Of a stretch of DNA of 64,000 bases, positions 2,405 to 46,703 are shown one piece after another. Position 1 is the stretch's first letter, and each line of letters begins with the position of its first letter. The notes under the pieces were generated by a model. That model worked only from the letters and a program-made list of their open reading frames with translations. It made no database searches and was not told the DNA's origin. The DNA comes from Octopus vulgaris (lineage: Eukaryota), in assembly GCA_951406725.2 (NCBI GenBank), contig OX597816.1:40548001-40612000 (forward strand), written 5' to 3'. The translations under genes and the position numbers were made by a program.

Positions 2405-2591
2405 TAGATCGCTAGCTCCTACACGCATTTTTTTCTCTCCTTGTTTTTTTCTGTGTATCTTTCTGTCGAAGATCGTAGGCTCGAAACGTAAAAGACTTGT
2501 TCTATTTCTATTCCTGAGCGCCATACTAATACAATTGTTTGTTTGTACACCACCTGCCTTCGTCTTTTGTTTAGTTTCGTAAACCTTCCCG

Positions 2592-2649: not shown

Positions 2650-2664
2650 TCATATATATATATA

Positions 2665-3015
2665 TGTAAAAGTAAAAAATACACAAACTGGGACAAGAAC
2701 GTGAACCATTTAGAAGACGACACAAAAAACACGGACGGGACTTTCGAAGCTCTCAGTCATCAGTCAAGAACTGGATCATCTTCGCAATTTCGGCTGATTA
2801 ATCTTGAGATTGTTCCGATCTGGGCAGCCCCCAAAGGAAATCTAAGCCAAGCGCATTAGATTCCTTGGAAAAAAGCCTCGAAAGTATACAACACAGGGAC
2901 GGAAAACGGACGATGTTACACGAATAAAAATACAAAATACGTAAAAACAATAATGATAGCACGAATAAGAATACAAAATACGTAAAAACAATAATAACAA
3001 AACCAGGACGTCATG
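2665..3015 (-). mobile_element. Non-coding repeat family P1 (probable PLE-related) carrying a permuted hammerhead
   Basis: Homologous to 11870-12160; lies between (TA)n and (TG)n tracts. Confidence 0.6.
2753..2813 (-). ncRNA. Candidate non-circularly permuted (pseudoknotted) hammerhead, core nucleotides intact
   Basis: Minus strand: CAAU-C|UCAAGA ... UCAGCC-GAAA-UUGC ...14 nt... UCUUGA-CUGAUGA-CUGA. Stem I 6 bp, stem III 4 bp, stem II ambiguous. Confidence 0.55.
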
Positions 3016-3027
3016 ACGTGTATGTGT

Positions 3028-6731: not shown

Positions 6732-6781
<50 letters not shown>

Positions 6782-6960
6782 AGGGCTTAGTAAAATAAAT
6801 TACTTTGCCACATACTGAACTCATTAGAAATAGCAGCCAAAAAAAAATTTTTTAGCCATTTCTAATACTTAAAGAAAATTTCTCTCAGATAGTGTTTACT
6901 CAAAATAACCCGCGAAGGTATGGGGGTAAAAACATTAAAAAATCACAAGTGCAAAGATTA

Positions 6961-7022
6961 TTTGAGAACGTACGTTTCTAGATCAGCCAAATACAATTCG
7001 ACATTTCTTTCGTCAGCTCAAA
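6961..7022 (-). ncRNA. Type I hammerhead ribozyme motif (inverted copy)
   Basis: Reverse complement of 7698-7759. Confidence 0.65.
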
Positions 7023-7697
7023 ATTTCTTAATTCGGATTTGTAAACACTGAAAATAGGAGCATACCCTTTTGGCGACTTTTCACCTCCGAAGATCTGTTC
7101 AAACTAACAGTGCCAACAAATTCAAAATATGCAAGCGAAGAATTTCTGCCCTCCCTTTCCACCCACGTGGGTTAAACTAGCAAACACCATGTTTTATCGG
7201 TGAAATGAATTATAATTTCAACAATTGAGGGTAAAATTATTACCATACCTTCGCGGGTTATTTTGAGTAAACACTATCTGAGAGAAATTTTCTTTAAGTA
7301 TTAGAAATGGCTAAAAAAATTTTTTTTGGCTGCTATTTCTAATGAGTTCAGTATATGGCAAAGTAATTTATTTTACTAAGCCCTTTATAAAATGTAATAT
7401 TTTGAATTCTCCTTAAATGGTCCCTTTACATACTGAATACTTGGTGAAATTGATTAATAATTAATTAATTTTACCCTCAATTGTTGAAATTATAATTCAT
7501 TTCTCTCTGTTTATTGCTTCGGTTTTCACCGATAAAACATGGTGTTTGCTAGTTTAACCCACGTGGGTGGAAAGGGAGGGCAGAATTGCATATTTTGAAT
7601 TTGTTGGCACTGTTAGTTTGAACAGATCTTCGGAGGTGAAAAGTCGCCAAAAGGGTATGCTCCTATTTTCAGTGTTTACAAATCCGAATTAAGAAAT

Positions 7698-7759
7698 TTT
7701 GAGCTGACGAAAGAAATGTCGAATTGTATTTGGCTGATCTAGAAACGTACGTTCTCAAA
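7698..7759 (+). ncRNA. Type I hammerhead ribozyme motif
   Basis: UUUGAG-CUGACGA-[A AGA..GUCGAAU UGU AUUUGGC..UCU A]-GAAAC-GUAC-GUU|CUCAAA: 6-bp stem I, short stem III with palindromic GUAC loop. Confidence 0.65.
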
Positions 7760-8067
7760 TAATCTTTGCACTTGTGATTTTTTAATGTTTTTACCCCCAT
7801 ACCTTCGCGGGTTATTTTGAGTAAACACTATCTGAGAGAAATTTTCTTTAAGTATTAGAAATGGCTAAAAAAATTTTTTTGGGCTGCTATTTCTAATGAG
7901 TTCAGTATGTGGCAAAGTAATTTATTTTACTAAGCCCTTTATAAAATGTAATATTTTGAATTCGCCTTAAATGGTCCCTTTACATACTGAATACTTGGTG
8001 AAATTGATTAATAATTAATTAATTTTACCCTCAATTGTTGAAAGTATATATATATATATATATAGAT

Positions 8068-11793: not shown

Positions 11794-11860
<67 letters not shown>

Positions 11861-11869
11861 CGTATATAT

Positions 11870-12160
11870 ATAATACAAAATGGGACAACAAAACATCCAG
11901 GTAGACGATACAACGAAAACAAGGACGGGTCATTCGAAACTTTCTTTCCTCAGTCAAGTACCATATTATCTTCGCAATTTCGGCTGATTATACTTGCGAT
12001 TGCTCCAATCTGGCCAGCCCAAAGGAAAAACTAAGCTAAGAGCATTAGATTCTTTGGAAGAAAGCAGTGAATGTATACAAAAACAAGGACGGAAATAATG
12101 GACAATGTTATACAAATACAACAAAAATAACAGTAACAGGACGTCCTGCCACTGGACGAC
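11870..12160 (-). mobile_element. Repeat family P1, second copy
   Basis: Collinear with 2665-3015 (ttcgcaatttcggctgatta, cattagattc..tgga). Confidence 0.6.
11940..12003 (-). ncRNA. Candidate permuted hammerhead (family P1)
   Basis: GCAAU-C|GCAAGUA ... GAAA-UUGC ... UACUUGA-CUGAGGA; stem III 5 bp, stem I 6 bp with a 1.1/2.1 mismatch; stem II not supported. Confidence 0.45.
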
Positions 12161-38909: not shown

Positions 38910-39004
<95 letters not shown>

Positions 39005-39091
39005 AATTCGAGACAAAACCACTATTTTGCAAATCAAACAAGGAAAGACTTAATCAATACATAAACATTTTTAATATAAAGAAATAAACCG

Positions 39092-39134
39092 CCACTACAA
39101 TCGTTTCATGTCTACAATGACATTCGTCAGGTGG
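39092..39134 (-). ncRNA. Minimal type I hammerhead, canonical core
   Basis: CCAC-CUGACGA-AUGUC-AUUGUA-GACAU-GAAAC-GAUU-GUA|GUGG. Confidence 0.75.
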
Positions 39135-39338
39135 ATTTTCGATCTCCTAATCTGTTTTAATTTATGAAGTGAATTCAAACTCTAGCCGTTATAACTTTAA
39201 ACAAGATTACGTTACCATAGGAACCGAACATATTTATAAATATGTTCGGTTCCTATGGTAACGTAATCTTGTTTAAAGTTATAACGGCTAGAGTTTGAAT
39301 TCACTTCATAAATTAAAACAGATTAGGAGATCGAAAAT

Positions 39339-39381
39339 CCACCCGACGAATGTCATTGTAGACATGAAACGATTGTAGTGG
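39339..39381 (+). ncRNA. Minimal type I hammerhead, U4C variant
   Basis: CCAC-CCGACGA-AUGUC-AUUGUA-GACAU-GAAAC-GAUU-GUA|GUGG. Confidence 0.65.
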
Positions 39382-39572
39382 CGGTTTATTTCTTTATATT
39401 AAAAATTTTTATGTATTGATTAAGTCTTTCCTTGTTTGATTTGCAAAATAGTGGTTTTGTCTCGAATTATATTATATAATATTTTACTATAAATTTGGAT
39501 TTAATCCTAAATCTGATTTTTCCCTGTAAATTTGGATTTATTCCCTAATATTTATTATTATATATATATGTA

Positions 39573-39608
<36 letters not shown>

Positions 39609-39913
39609 TGTATGTATGTATGTATGTATGTATGCATGTATGTATATATACGACGGGCAAACGCGGAGTAGGCGAAACAGGGACAACTGAAGAAGGGGAA
39701 TCTTCCTTTTGTTCCCTTTCCTGTATGCCTCCTCTTCCCTTGCACATTCCTCATTCCAGTATACATACATACATCTATATGTATATATACATGCATATAT
39801 GGGTACAGGACATAAAAAAACCGTTGAACACAATGAGAAACGAAAACATAGAAACAAAAATGTGGAAACGAACTTTCTTTCAAACAACGTAAAAACAGAG
39901 TACCAGACATACA

Positions 39914-40129: not shown

Positions 40130-40329
40130 AAGAAACCCATACGATCAGCAAAGTGGATTTCGGAGGAGACTATTGCAATAGCAGAAGAGAGAAGGAGAGC
40201 AAAGATGACCAGAAGCAGGGATCAAGTGCGGCGCCTGAATGCAATGTTCCAACAGGCCGCCAGGAAGGACAAAGAGAAATACTGGAATGAGGAATGTGCA
40301 AGGGAAGAGGAGGCATACAGGAAAGGGAA
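40130..40329 (+). mobile_element. RTE-clade LINE internal fragment (EN-RT linker), inverted relative to the 3' end
   Basis: [18 protein letters not shown]...[22 protein letters not shown] matches the RTE/BovB W.S.E.L....ERR.AK...R.DK..Y...C segment. Confidence 0.8.
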
Positions 40330-40399
40330 CACATGGAATATTCCCCTTCTTCAGTTGTCCCTGTTTCGTCTACTCCGCGTTTGCCCGTCGTATATATAC

Positions 40400-40461
<62 letters not shown>

Positions 40462-42869: not shown

Positions 42870-43410
42870 GCTCAGGCATGGCTGAGTGGTAAGAAGTTTG
42901 CTTCGAAATCACATGGTTCCGGGTCGGTCCCATTGTGTGGATTTAGTAGACAGAAACTGAAAGAAGCCCGTCGTTTATTATATATATATATAGTTAATCC
43001 AAACAAGAAAGCACAAAAAAAAAACGTGAGGACGTGGAACAAATATAGTATTATTGGACGCTCAGGAAAGAAGGAAAGAAGGAGGGTTTAACATTTCGAG
43101 CAGAGCTCTTCGTCAGAAACATAGGAGAAGGAAAGATCCAGAGAAGGGAAGATAGAGGAAAAAAATCGCCAACGGTACACACGCGGTCACATATATATAT
43201 ATATTTATATACTTGTGTGTGTGTCTGTGCCTTTCCCGCCTCCCATAGCTTGACAACCGATGTTGGTGTGTTTACGTCCCCGTAACCTAGCGATACAGCA
43301 AAAGAGTCCGAAGGGATATTACTAGGTTTACATGCAATAAGTCCTGGGATCGATTTGTTCGACCAATACAATTTAAGACGGTACTCCAGCATGGCCGCAG
43401 TTAAAAGAAT
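42870..43410 (+). mobile_element. Diverged SINE family A interrupted by a family H element in its internal (TA)n
   Basis: SINE 5' part 42870-42975, 3' part about 43215-43410. Confidence 0.7.
42992..43190 (-). mobile_element. Family H copy with minimal hammerhead (43086-43120, CUGACGA core)
   Basis: GUUU-CUGACGA-A-GAGC-UCU-GCUC-GAAA-UG-UU|AAAC. Confidence 0.65.
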
Positions 43411-44039: not shown

Positions 44040-44910
44040 ACAATTTAATAAATAAAACATATGCATATATACATACATATATATATACATACCTACATCT
44101 ATATGTATATATACATGCATATATGAGTACAGGACACCACAGATAAACGTAGAACACAACGAGAAACGAAAACATGAAATCAAACAAGGAAACGGACTTT
44201 TTTTAACAACGGTAAAACAGAGTACAGGACAAACAATACAAGGAAAATTCCTCTTCATCAGCTGCCCCTGGTTCGACTCAATGCGTGTTCCGAAGGTAAG
44301 GGCAGCACACGATCCGGCCGAAGCAGACCTTCCTGCAAAGGGAATTAAATAAAATTCTTTTGCAGAGAGGTAAAACAAGTGACAAGAACAGGACGTAAAA
44401 GCAATACAAATGAAGAAAAACAGTACAAATAAAGAATAACAGGACAAGGAAACCAACAATAAGGGCTTTTTTAAAGCCTAGACGGTGGAAAAATTCGTTA
44501 AAACGCATGTGAAAAATCGGCTTGCGGAAGACAGAAGTTGTTGTTGACTTGCTGAAAGCAGCGGGCAGAAAGAAACATTCGTAGCACTCCGGTCAGTAGC
44601 CAGAGAGAGGAGGAGGATGAGGTGGAGAGAGAGAGAGAGAGAGGGGGAGAGAGGAAAAGAAACCTGAAAGGGTGAAAAATAAGAAGGAGAGAGACAGGTA
44701 GAGAGGAAGACAGACAAGCAGGGTGGAAAGGTCAAGTTAAGAGTTAAGAGTGCGCGTCATAATTATTCAAATAAAAACTTACTTGAAGAGAAAACAACGT
44801 GTGCGTTCAGTCATATAATAACAATTTAATAAATAAAACATATGCATATATACATACATATATGTACATACCTACATCTATATGTATATATACATGCATA
44901 TATGAGTACA
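44037..44910 (-). mobile_element. Repeat family P3: about 780-bp non-coding unit with about 90-bp terminal direct repeat, in (TA)n
   Basis: 44037-44131 repeated at 44817-44910; homologous to 39770-39913 plus 40329-40390; contains permuted HHR 44250-44311. Confidence 0.6.
44250..44311 (-). ncRNA. Candidate non-circularly permuted hammerhead (all three helices pairable; A13G and G17 in this copy)
   Basis: CGUGU-G|CUGCCCUU-A-CCUUC-GGAA-CACG-(14 nt)-AGGGGCAG-CUGAUGA-A-GAGG: stem I 8 bp, stem III 5 bp, stem II 4 bp. Confidence 0.55.
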
Positions 44911-44927
44911 TATATATATATATATAT

Positions 44928-44987
<60 letters not shown>

Positions 44988-45781
44988 AAACAAGTAAAAA
45001 ATAGAAAATGCTAACATAATTTTATAGTGAACATTTCAGTACCGGTTTCGGTCATTTTGAGACCTTTTCAACTGTAACGATTAAATAATTAAATTTAGAA
45101 AAATTAGAAGAAAAGTTTTTTTAAAACAATATTTCTATAGTAGTGTTCAGATTTAAGTGGCATTCTGCCTTTCTCTGACTCCCTTGTTTGCACTTGTGTG
45201 TTCGAGGTAGTTGTGAGTTCTTGGTAGGGTAGTAGAGGGAAGGCTGGTGAGGAAAGGGGGTGGGAGAATCTGGGAGTGCCCTGATGGTCGTATTTTGAAT
45301 GGTCAGTGGCGGCTGGCAGTCTCAGTTCAATTCAGGAGAATATTTATATCGACAGGCTTGTTTATAGAATTAGCGTAGGTGTTATACTAAAAAACATTAG
45401 TGACAAACTTAAGGGGTAGGGGGTGGAGAAGAAGAAGAAGAAGAAGAAGAAGAAGAAGGAGAAGGAGAAGGAGAAGATGATGGTGATGGTGGTGATGATT
45501 ATGACGACGATGATGATGATAACGATGATGATGATGAAGAAGAAGAAGAAGAAGAAGGAGGAGAAGGAGAAGATAGTGGTGATGATGGTGGCGATGATGA
45601 TGACGCCGATGATGATGATAACGATGATGATGAAGAAGAAGAAGAAGAAAAAAACAGAGAAGGGAGAATATGAATGGGTGTAAATATAGCTATGAAGGGG
45701 CTGATTAGTAATGGATTCTATGGAGTGTAGTATTTGTGTGTGTATATATATTTTTTTCTTTTATTCTAAAGTTGAGGTATA

Positions 45782-46014
45782 TTAATTGTTTGTCGTAGAC
45801 CCGTTAAGAAGTGGCTTGTATTTTGTAATAAAGAGATTTTCTTTACTTATTCTTTGTCTCGAGGTTGTATCGTCCCTAAATTGGTAGAGGGGGAAAATTC
45901 TGAAGTTTGGTGTTTTTTTGTTGGCGCAAGTATCTATGTGTTGGCTAAAAGCTATTTTTCTGTTTTGGGGAATTTTTATCTGGGATCTGTGCAGGGCCAT
46001 TCGTTTACGCAAAC
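45782..46014 (-). pseudogene. C-terminal part of a Penelope-like GIY-YIG endonuclease
   Basis: LRKRMALHRSQI...FSQHIDTCA...PNFRIFPLY...RISKENLFITKYKPLLN: R..H, H..C, E..FI and P.LN motifs typical of PLE endonucleases. Confidence 0.75.
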
Positions 46015-46573
46015 ATCATCGGCGTCATCATCATCGCCACCATCATCACCACCATCTTCTCCTTCTCCTCCTTCTTCTTCTTCTTCTTCTTCTTCATCAT
46101 CATCGTTATCATCATCATCGTCGTCATAATCATCACCACCATCACCATCATCTTCTCCTTCTCCTTCTCTTCTTCTTCTTCTTCTTCTTCTTCTTCTTCT
46201 TCTTCTTCTTCTTCTTCTTCTTCTTCTCCACCCCTACCCCTTAAGTTTGTCACTAATGTTTTTTAGTATAACACCTACGCTAATTCTATAAACAAGCCTG
46301 TCGATATAAATATTCTCCTGAATTGAACTGAGACTGCCAGCCGCCACTGACCATTCAAAATACGACCATCAGGGCACTCCCAGATTCTCCCACCCCCTTT
46401 CCTCACCAGCCTTCCCTCTACTACCCTACCAAGAACTCACAACTACCTCGAACACACAAGTGCAAACAAGGGAGTCAGAGAAAGGCAGAATGCCACTTAA
46501 ATCTGAACACTACTATAGAAATATTGTTTTAAAAAAACTTTTCTTCTAATTTTTCTAAATTTAATTATTTAAT

Positions 46574-46621
46574 CGTTACAGTTGAAAAGGTCTCAAAATG
46601 ACCGAAACCGGTACTGAAATG
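46574..46621 (+). ncRNA. Minimal type I hammerhead, U3-A8 core variant (mirror copy about 45032-45079, minus)
   Basis: CGUUACAG-UUGAAAA-GGUC-UCAAAAU-GACC-GAAA-CCGG-UA|CUGAAAUG. Confidence 0.65.
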
Positions 46622-46703
46622 TTCACTATAAAATTATTTTAGCATTTTCTATTTTTTACTTGTTTTTTCATATATATCAACTCGTGTGTTCCTTTTCACC
46701 CTT

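Follow-up and report, generated by a model that had tools for sequence, protein, structure and literature searches.

A repeat family of the Octopus vulgaris genome carries a predicted, non-circularly permuted hammerhead with a four-way junction inside its core

The minus strand of a repeat in the Octopus vulgaris genome carries the conserved pieces of a hammerhead ribozyme in a permuted order, which raises the question of whether these pieces make up a complete core and where helix II lies. The repeat is found in a stretch of 64,000 nucleotides (the window; contig OX597816.1, positions 40,548,001 to 40,612,000), in which the original prediction, covering 2753..2813, had seen a permuted hammerhead with a complete core. 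As it had claimed, AUC (C17 at 2808), GAAA (2791-2788) and CUGAUGA (2763-2757) all lie on the minus strand, and their order, AUC, GAAA, CUGAUGA, is that of a non-circularly permuted hammerhead. Helix I, UCAAGA/UCUUGA, forms six of six pairs between 2807-2802 and 2769-2764, helix III, CAAU/AUUG, forms four pairs between 2812-2809 and 2788-2785, and with C17 of AUC at 2808 the predicted cut position stays at 2808/2807. The motif belongs to a copy of a non-coding, 5'-truncated repeat family, F1; this copy has its 3' end on a (TA)n run and its 5' break at a CA/TG run.

In the fold that we predict (Table 1), the minus strand runs from the 5' strand of helix II through the cut site and GAAA to CUGANGA. 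In the usual sense of a contiguous core this one is incomplete, because the 5' strand of helix II is displaced to a place upstream of the cut site and does not follow CUGAUGA. It lies 72 nt upstream of A9, which has no direct junction (0-2 nt) with helix II, and the strand after the core pairs in a closing helix, P0. A9 and G10.1 are parted by P0 and a hairpin, with linkers of 0-2 nt to the core and to helix II, an arrangement modelled as a four-way junction within the core. A single bent hairpin is made up of helix III and the I/II interaction helix, and base pairing of its loop with both flanks, in helices I and II, gives two pseudoknots. The structure spans 2885-2740, well past the region that had been singled out, and the transcript of 2735-2830 proposed for a cleavage assay would be without P0 and the hairpin.

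A kink-turn consists of a 3-nt bulge followed by tandem G-A and A-G pairs between two helices. The internal loop that links the interaction helix to helix III fits this rule, with G at position 1b, A at 2b and A at 1n in 40/40 aligned copies each and G at 2n in 38/40, while the bulge letters vary. A kink-turn is therefore predicted, by its sequence rule, at the loop between helix III and the interaction helix.

Table 1. Repeat copies in the window and elements of the predicted F1 fold
Feature	Positions	Strand	Remarks
F1 copy (non-coding repeat, 5'-truncated)	2662..3016	minus	98% match to positions 374-730 of the L031 tandem unit
Second F1 copy (other subfamily), same architecture, decayed further	11852..12128	minus	
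F2 copy, same wiring	44170..44400	minus	GUG at site; other F2 copies GUU
P0 closing helix, 5' strand	2871..2885	minus	pairs with 2754-2740; probabilities 0.66-1.0 over 15 pairs
P0 closing helix, 3' strand	2740..2754	minus	starts 2 nt past A9
Hairpin between P0 and helix II, fourth arm of the predicted junction	2830..2868	minus	85.9% of cells paired
Helix II 5' strand GGCUG, G10.1 at 2829	2825..2829	minus	pairs with 2796-2792
I/II interaction helix, first strand	2817..2823	minus	7 pairs with 2777-2771, 89.1% paired
I/II interaction helix, second strand	2771..2777	minus	partner of 2823-2817
Block S: helix III strand and AUC, predicted cut 2808/2807	2808..2813	minus	U16.1 125/125, C17 121/125
Helix I 3' strand	2802..2807	minus	96.7% paired; A-U/G-C and U-A/A-U swaps
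Block G: helix II 3' strand CAGCC, GAAA, helix III strand	2784..2796	minus	helix III 96.5% paired
Predicted kink-turn bulge strand (3 nt, then GA)	2778..2783	minus	opposite GA at 2815-2814
Block C without helix II arm: helix I 5' strand and CUGAUGA	2757..2769	minus	core letters 98-100% constant

The fold was assessed on an alignment of 125 F1 copies from 113 loci and the window, and pair by pair on 40 copies that we selected to span the subfamilies. Of these 40 rows, 18 had been chosen by a pattern fixing the core and helix I, as had 30 of the loci behind the 125 copies; the pattern left the upstream helix II strand, the hairpin and P0 free. Over the whole fold, 84.3% of cells were paired in the 40 copies. 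The covariation score was 0.212 versus 0.140 in shuffles, of which 0/500 scored as high, and at most 0.102 in slid controls, while two measures that count pairs or types did no better than shuffles (359/500 and 477/500 as high); the copies are related by descent, so that cell counts overstate events. Pairing was most complete in helices I and III, with two-sided changes present in helix I and at two pairs of helix III. Helix II, GGCUG/CAGCC, was paired in 94% of cells with two-sided change in 3/5 pairs, and within one 32-copy subfamily it was swapped for GGGCA/UGCCC in 13 copies and for GGACA/UGUCC in 6. The interaction helix had two pairs with two-sided change, and the hairpin 2868-2830 had three. 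P0 was the weakest helix (70% of cells paired over 17 columns), with two-sided change in 6 pairs. The strand order, the bent hairpin, the two pseudoknots, P0 and the hairpin of the predicted fold are thus demonstrated by covariation.

These data also bear on where helix II had been placed before. The original prediction had paired CUGA, directly after the core, with UCAG, leaving CC unpaired before GAAA, and had seen no clear helix II in the second copy. That pairing is present in 46.9% of cells, a value matched by 468/500 shuffles; CC belongs to CAGCC, paired with the upstream GGCUG, and this pairing is present in both copies. The family alignment by which helix II was to be defined did reveal a conserved helix II, namely GGCUG/CAGCC, with CUGA/UCAG remaining at shuffle level. 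An ordinary, intact type-SGC hammerhead built on CUGA/UCAG is consequently highly improbable: four pairs can be drawn in the copy at 2662..3016, but across copies they are no more frequent than in shuffles, they leave C11.1 unpaired, and the strand that they use pairs in P0. A pattern search for copies with G right after the core returned 36 genomic copies, of which 0 restored a contiguous helix II as read. Scarcely credible is a decayed minimal type I hammerhead of the kind found in canonical Penelope pseudo-LTRs, made of CUGAUGA, the downstream GAAA at 2745-2742 and GUC. The three motifs do stand in that order in the copy at 2662..3016, but the downstream GAAA reads GAAT in 87/125 copies and GAAA in 26/125 and lies inside P0, no helix I or III can be drawn, and a local Rfam scan gave 11 matches with no hammerhead at E up to 10. 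Over the window, no hammerhead was seen among the 150 listed of 401 Rfam matches. The Rfam blank is explained by its hammerhead models, which cannot hold such a topology.

The letters of CUGANGA, GAAA and NUH are kept in the 125 copies, part of which were selected by pattern. A recurrent second letter (in at least 8/125 copies) occurs in 1/12 core columns versus 55/122 others (p=0.011); the single varying core column is G12, a CpG site with A in 12/125 copies, and this variation is CpG decay. N7 is unconstrained (T 59, G 53, A 13 of 125). Conservation of the core around a free N7 is the pattern of a hammerhead. The base after A9 is likewise unconstrained (A 61, G 30, C 24, T 10 of 125), and G10.1-C11.1 is G-C in 33/40 copies, which is as expected if helix II, and not P0, stacks on the core. 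Both observations speak against the improbable alternative that the RNA cuts through some other arrangement, with A9 stacked on P0, with halves supplied by two molecules or tandem units, or with a protein needed for folding. On the side of that alternative, a four-way junction can take either of two stacking conformers, units are also arranged in tandem (4.4 units of 723 bp), and the title of a cited work reports that Penelope-type hammerheads cut as dimers.

The copy at 2662..3016 had been put forward as the best genomic candidate for activity, a standing that its sequence does not bear out. It has A at 2813, where most relatives have G, which leaves helix III without its fifth pair; at 2772, A replaces the G of nearly all relatives and brings a second mismatch into the interaction helix, the two mismatches being C-A and A-C. 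Its nested minimum-energy fold contains an alternative hairpin that buries CUGAU, and nested folding, in which pseudoknots cannot be scored, favours an alternative hairpin over helix III both here and in the copy at L031. The copy is slightly decayed and may be inactive; it may still cut, and it is not the best candidate. The paralog at 11940-12003, with 78% identity over 254 nt, is real and has GCAAU/AUUGC and an altered helix I as described, except that the first helix I pair is a G-A mismatch and does not pair.

With the copy at 2662..3016 as query, at least 4,083 F1 candidates were found genome-wide at first look, with at least 3,396 for the paralog and at least 1,969 for a diverged copy; the three sets overlap and each is a lower bound. 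Three incidental matches in 339 kb would scale to about 25,000 copies in the 2.8-Gb, microsatellite-rich host genome, from too thin a sample. A descriptor scan for the strand order over 519,936 bases gave 95 forward matches, mostly family copies fetched on purpose (two that were printed look like chance), and 0 in reversed sequence. Since the reversed sequence gave no match and F1 candidates number in the thousands, the motif order is not due to chance. F1 copies have their 3' end on (TA)n about 100 nt past the core, variable 5' truncation and partial tandems. The longest F1 unit seen, of 723 bp, is the period of a tandem array at L031 (G000:C1:79499337-79502500), in which 4.4 F1 units are 99% alike; the array looks young and retrozyme-like. 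No ORF was seen in the F1 flanks or in the 723-bp unit in the part of the ORF search output covered, nor was an ORF with an N-terminal GIY-YIG, CxC and RT, the hallmark of the Penelope-like Naiad elements. Exact pattern matches in viral contigs numbered 0. We infer from this anatomy that F1 is a non-coding element moved by a Penelope-like retrotransposon.

Several further sequences were met at F1 loci. A short start or tail motif is common to 6/116 F1 loci (L041, L057, L071, L074, L102, L108) and 1/30 loci (L211) of a second family, F2, which hints at a common mobilising element. A GIY-YIG piece beside L117 belongs to a separate Penelope-like family whose nuclease is C-terminal, the hammerhead motif occurring in 0/29 of its other loci, and no Pfam family was assigned to the piece at L128. 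The loci L123-L151 represent an abundant Penelope-like family (8,277 candidates) with a C-terminal GIY-YIG and frames of up to 635 aa, whose tail carries a degenerate type I-like motif. Fragments close to F1 copies in the flanks of L046, L082 and L087 are presumably mariner-like transposases, going by motif likeness.

The wiring of F1 recurs in two other families. F2, with 2,889 candidates and sequence-distinct from F1, has an upstream helix II (GAAGG/CCUUC), a GUU site, the hairpin and a short P0. The F2 copy in the window, at 44170-44400, has GGAA in place of GAAA and GUG at its site and is probably dead. F3, with 174 exact pattern matches, has upstream GACAC/GUGUC, a GUA site and the same bulge as F1; the consensi Naiad_Obim and Naiad_Ovul match it at their 3' ends, and an RT fragment lies upstream in 1/30 F3 loci (Pfam RVT_1, E 2e-5). 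F1 itself shows little sequence likeness to F3, and its link to Naiads is indirect because no coding region was seen on F1. Naiads were reported to be without canonical hammerheads, and eight consensi, Naiad_Ovul included, were flagged 'HHR_half_core' (Craig et al. 2021, PMC8557442). In the matched passages from part of the 55 consensi of the supplement, three Acropora Naiads and one further Naiad have, by eye, the upstream helix II, hairpin and P0, and the first consensus in the file looks similar, with a short helix I (PMC8557442). Among the same passages, three nematode Naiads (Naiad-1_Nbra, Naiad-3_Nbra and one more) carry, again by eye, complete, unsplit type-CSG hammerheads with the same ring; type CSG is known from only two sequences in Eckert 2023 (PMC10085705).

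The window also holds other repeats. In an inverted pair at 39620-39740 (+) and 40300-40420 (-), the repeats are 5'-truncated, lie on TA runs and have GAAAC some 12 nt ahead of CUGAAGA; they may be a further family of reversed order. Repeats at 43040-43180 (-) and 2420-2560 (+) have a type I-like order (CUGACGA or CUGUCGA, a short hairpin, GAAA); the latter adjoins the F1 copy on the opposite strand and has relatives at about 17200, 24850, 25300 and 48300. Near-perfect long inverted repeats at 38995-39478 (242 nt, no spacer), 6770-7950 (365 nt) and 44976-46677 (447 nt) are possibly fold-back or miniature DNA elements.

Should cut RNA serve as template for new genomic copies, these are expected to start at +1. 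Patterns requiring three non-family letters ahead of family sequence matched 89 times at the predicted bond, 4 times at -5 and 25 times at +14, and all matches were retrieved and classified. The CUGAAGA subfamily supplied 47 of the 89 matches at the bond. True 5' breaks accounted for 75/89, 4/4 and 23/25, the controls being these two positions only and the filters passing a single phase of the TA run. Of the 75 breaks at the bond, 24 abutted (TA)n, 12 were separated from (TA)n by 1-8 nt, 16 came after a short re-primed piece and 23 had other flanks, and an inverted piece was present in 9. The 14 internal changes at the bond included six insertions of 1-2 nt and five TC deletions explicable by slippage. 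Breaks on other flanks numbered 23 at the bond versus 18 at +14, so that the excess comes from TA-flanked and re-primed junctions. In a TA-anchored search with 3,403 overlapping matches, the first 100 listed represented 22 distinct loci; by eye, three start upstream of the cut, five at +1 and 14 at +3 to +13, that is, 3 upstream versus 19 at or after the cut (p=1.4e-4). F2 has no sharp +1 peak: of 28 loci, three start upstream and two at +1, and a further 14 start within +8 to +10, at a TA microhomology. In contigs from eight sequencing runs, two that we guess to be RNA end at 2807 and other guessed-RNA ones at 2810-2811; depth also falls at the site in two large runs of unknown kind, so that these ends do not count as evidence. 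The excess of breaks at the predicted bond suggests cleavage of F1 RNA, short of proof.

The same evidence can be set against the view that the fold is real and conserved and is no longer catalytic, having become a hammerhead-derived binding or template signal for a Penelope-like reverse transcriptase, which we regard as unlikely. Its case is that the split core lies outside the hammerheads that have been tested (PMC10085705), that breaks on non-TA flanks are not enriched, that F2 lacks the sharp peak, and that in a Penelope-like element of anole hammerhead cutting was dispensable for insertion in vitro, with no reads ending at the site (PMC11167929). Yet all catalytic letters are kept while N7 and the stems change, they are kept also in unrelated families and phyla, and insertions and re-primed pieces sit on the scissile bond.

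We therefore consider it probable that F1 RNA would fold as a non-circularly permuted hammerhead with a four-way junction between A9 and G10.1, likely cutting itself after AUC. In the mechanism that we propose, helix II would stack on the A9-G12 core while P0 stacks on the hairpin; normal hammerhead geometry would thereby be kept though the backbone between A9 and G10.1 is opened, and the kink-turn would bend helix III back to helices I and II. P0 needs both ends to be transcribed and therefore could gate cutting. Cutting would serve to process element RNA transcribed in tandem or by read-through. Its 3' products would then be reverse-transcribed and inserted by a partner enzyme that is Penelope-like and likely of Naiad type, giving copies that start at the cut. 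The shared fold and target point, by analogy, to a Naiad enzyme as the putative mobiliser of F1. The in-vitro cleavage rates of SGC and CSG hammerheads are 0.004-0.19 per minute, and known hammerheads have no insertion of more than 1-2 nt between CUGAnGA and the stems (Eckert et al., PMC10085705); activity of a split core is therefore an extrapolation.

We lean, if only slightly, towards a broader reading, in which a split-core class (A9/G10.1 opened by a four-way junction, with a kink-turn) would be an overlooked ribozyme of Naiads, and of the non-coding elements parasitic on them, in invertebrates including corals and molluscs, with nematode Naiads keeping the unsplit CSG form, cut RNAs serving as insertion templates and P0 gating the cut. 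If true, this would overturn the rule of a contiguous CUGANGA strand and helix II, add a further topology to the six block orders that Eckert et al. gave, place non-circularly permuted ribozymes in animal genomes in thousands of copies and explain why Naiads seemed to be without hammerheads. It would also make a role of self-cleavage in Penelope-like retrotransposition directly testable, and a core dependent on a closing helix would offer a natural insertion point for engineered RNA switches. In the open-licence literature we found no description of a split-core hammerhead or of a permuted hammerhead in Naiads; the supplements of Eckert et al. could hold related alignments.

Among known systems, F1 shares with Naiads the preference for (TA)n and insertions that are 5'-truncated, in tandem or inverted; its (TA)n targets, its partial tandems and its inverted 5'-truncated pieces are common to other Penelope-like clades as well, and the split-core fold is not given in the parts of the Naiad paper drawn on here (PMC8557442). 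With Penelope-like type I hammerheads and non-LTR retrozymes it shares a near-end hammerhead and non-coding tandem copies, whereas theirs are classic circular permutations (type I) without core pseudoknots (bioRxiv 10.64898/2026.07.22.740005, PMC11167929), and the preprint search used type I models only (bioRxiv 10.64898/2026.07.22.740005). F1 has the tandem array of a non-LTR retrozyme and lacks the type I hammerhead, and so does not qualify as one. The plus-strand hammerhead of CChMVd has an extra A between A9 and G10.1 and is still active (PMC1636495, PMC3705267); there the insertion is one nucleotide, in contrast to two helices and both RNA ends in F1. The closest likeness is to type SGC of Eckert et al. 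(PMC10085705), with which F1 shares the order cut site, GAAA, CUGANGA and all core letters, its blocks following as S (2813-2802), G (2796-2784) and C (2769-2757), and, as with CSG, the two pseudoknots and the helix that connects helices I and II at their far ends. The linker from helix I to helix II is 5 nt in F1 versus typically 3 in type SGC, F1 also differs by its predicted kink-turn, and it is an animal genomic repeat of several thousand copies, whereas the SGC and CSG hammerheads came from a search begun in metatranscriptome contigs (PMC10085705). Block C (helix I strand, CUGAnGA, helix II strand) was assumed to be unbreakable (PMC10085705), whereas in F1 its helix II strand has moved upstream; because an uninterrupted block C is lacking, F1 is not a member of type SGC as defined. 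On its predicted fold, F1 works like an SGC hammerhead and is filed as a hammerhead variant.
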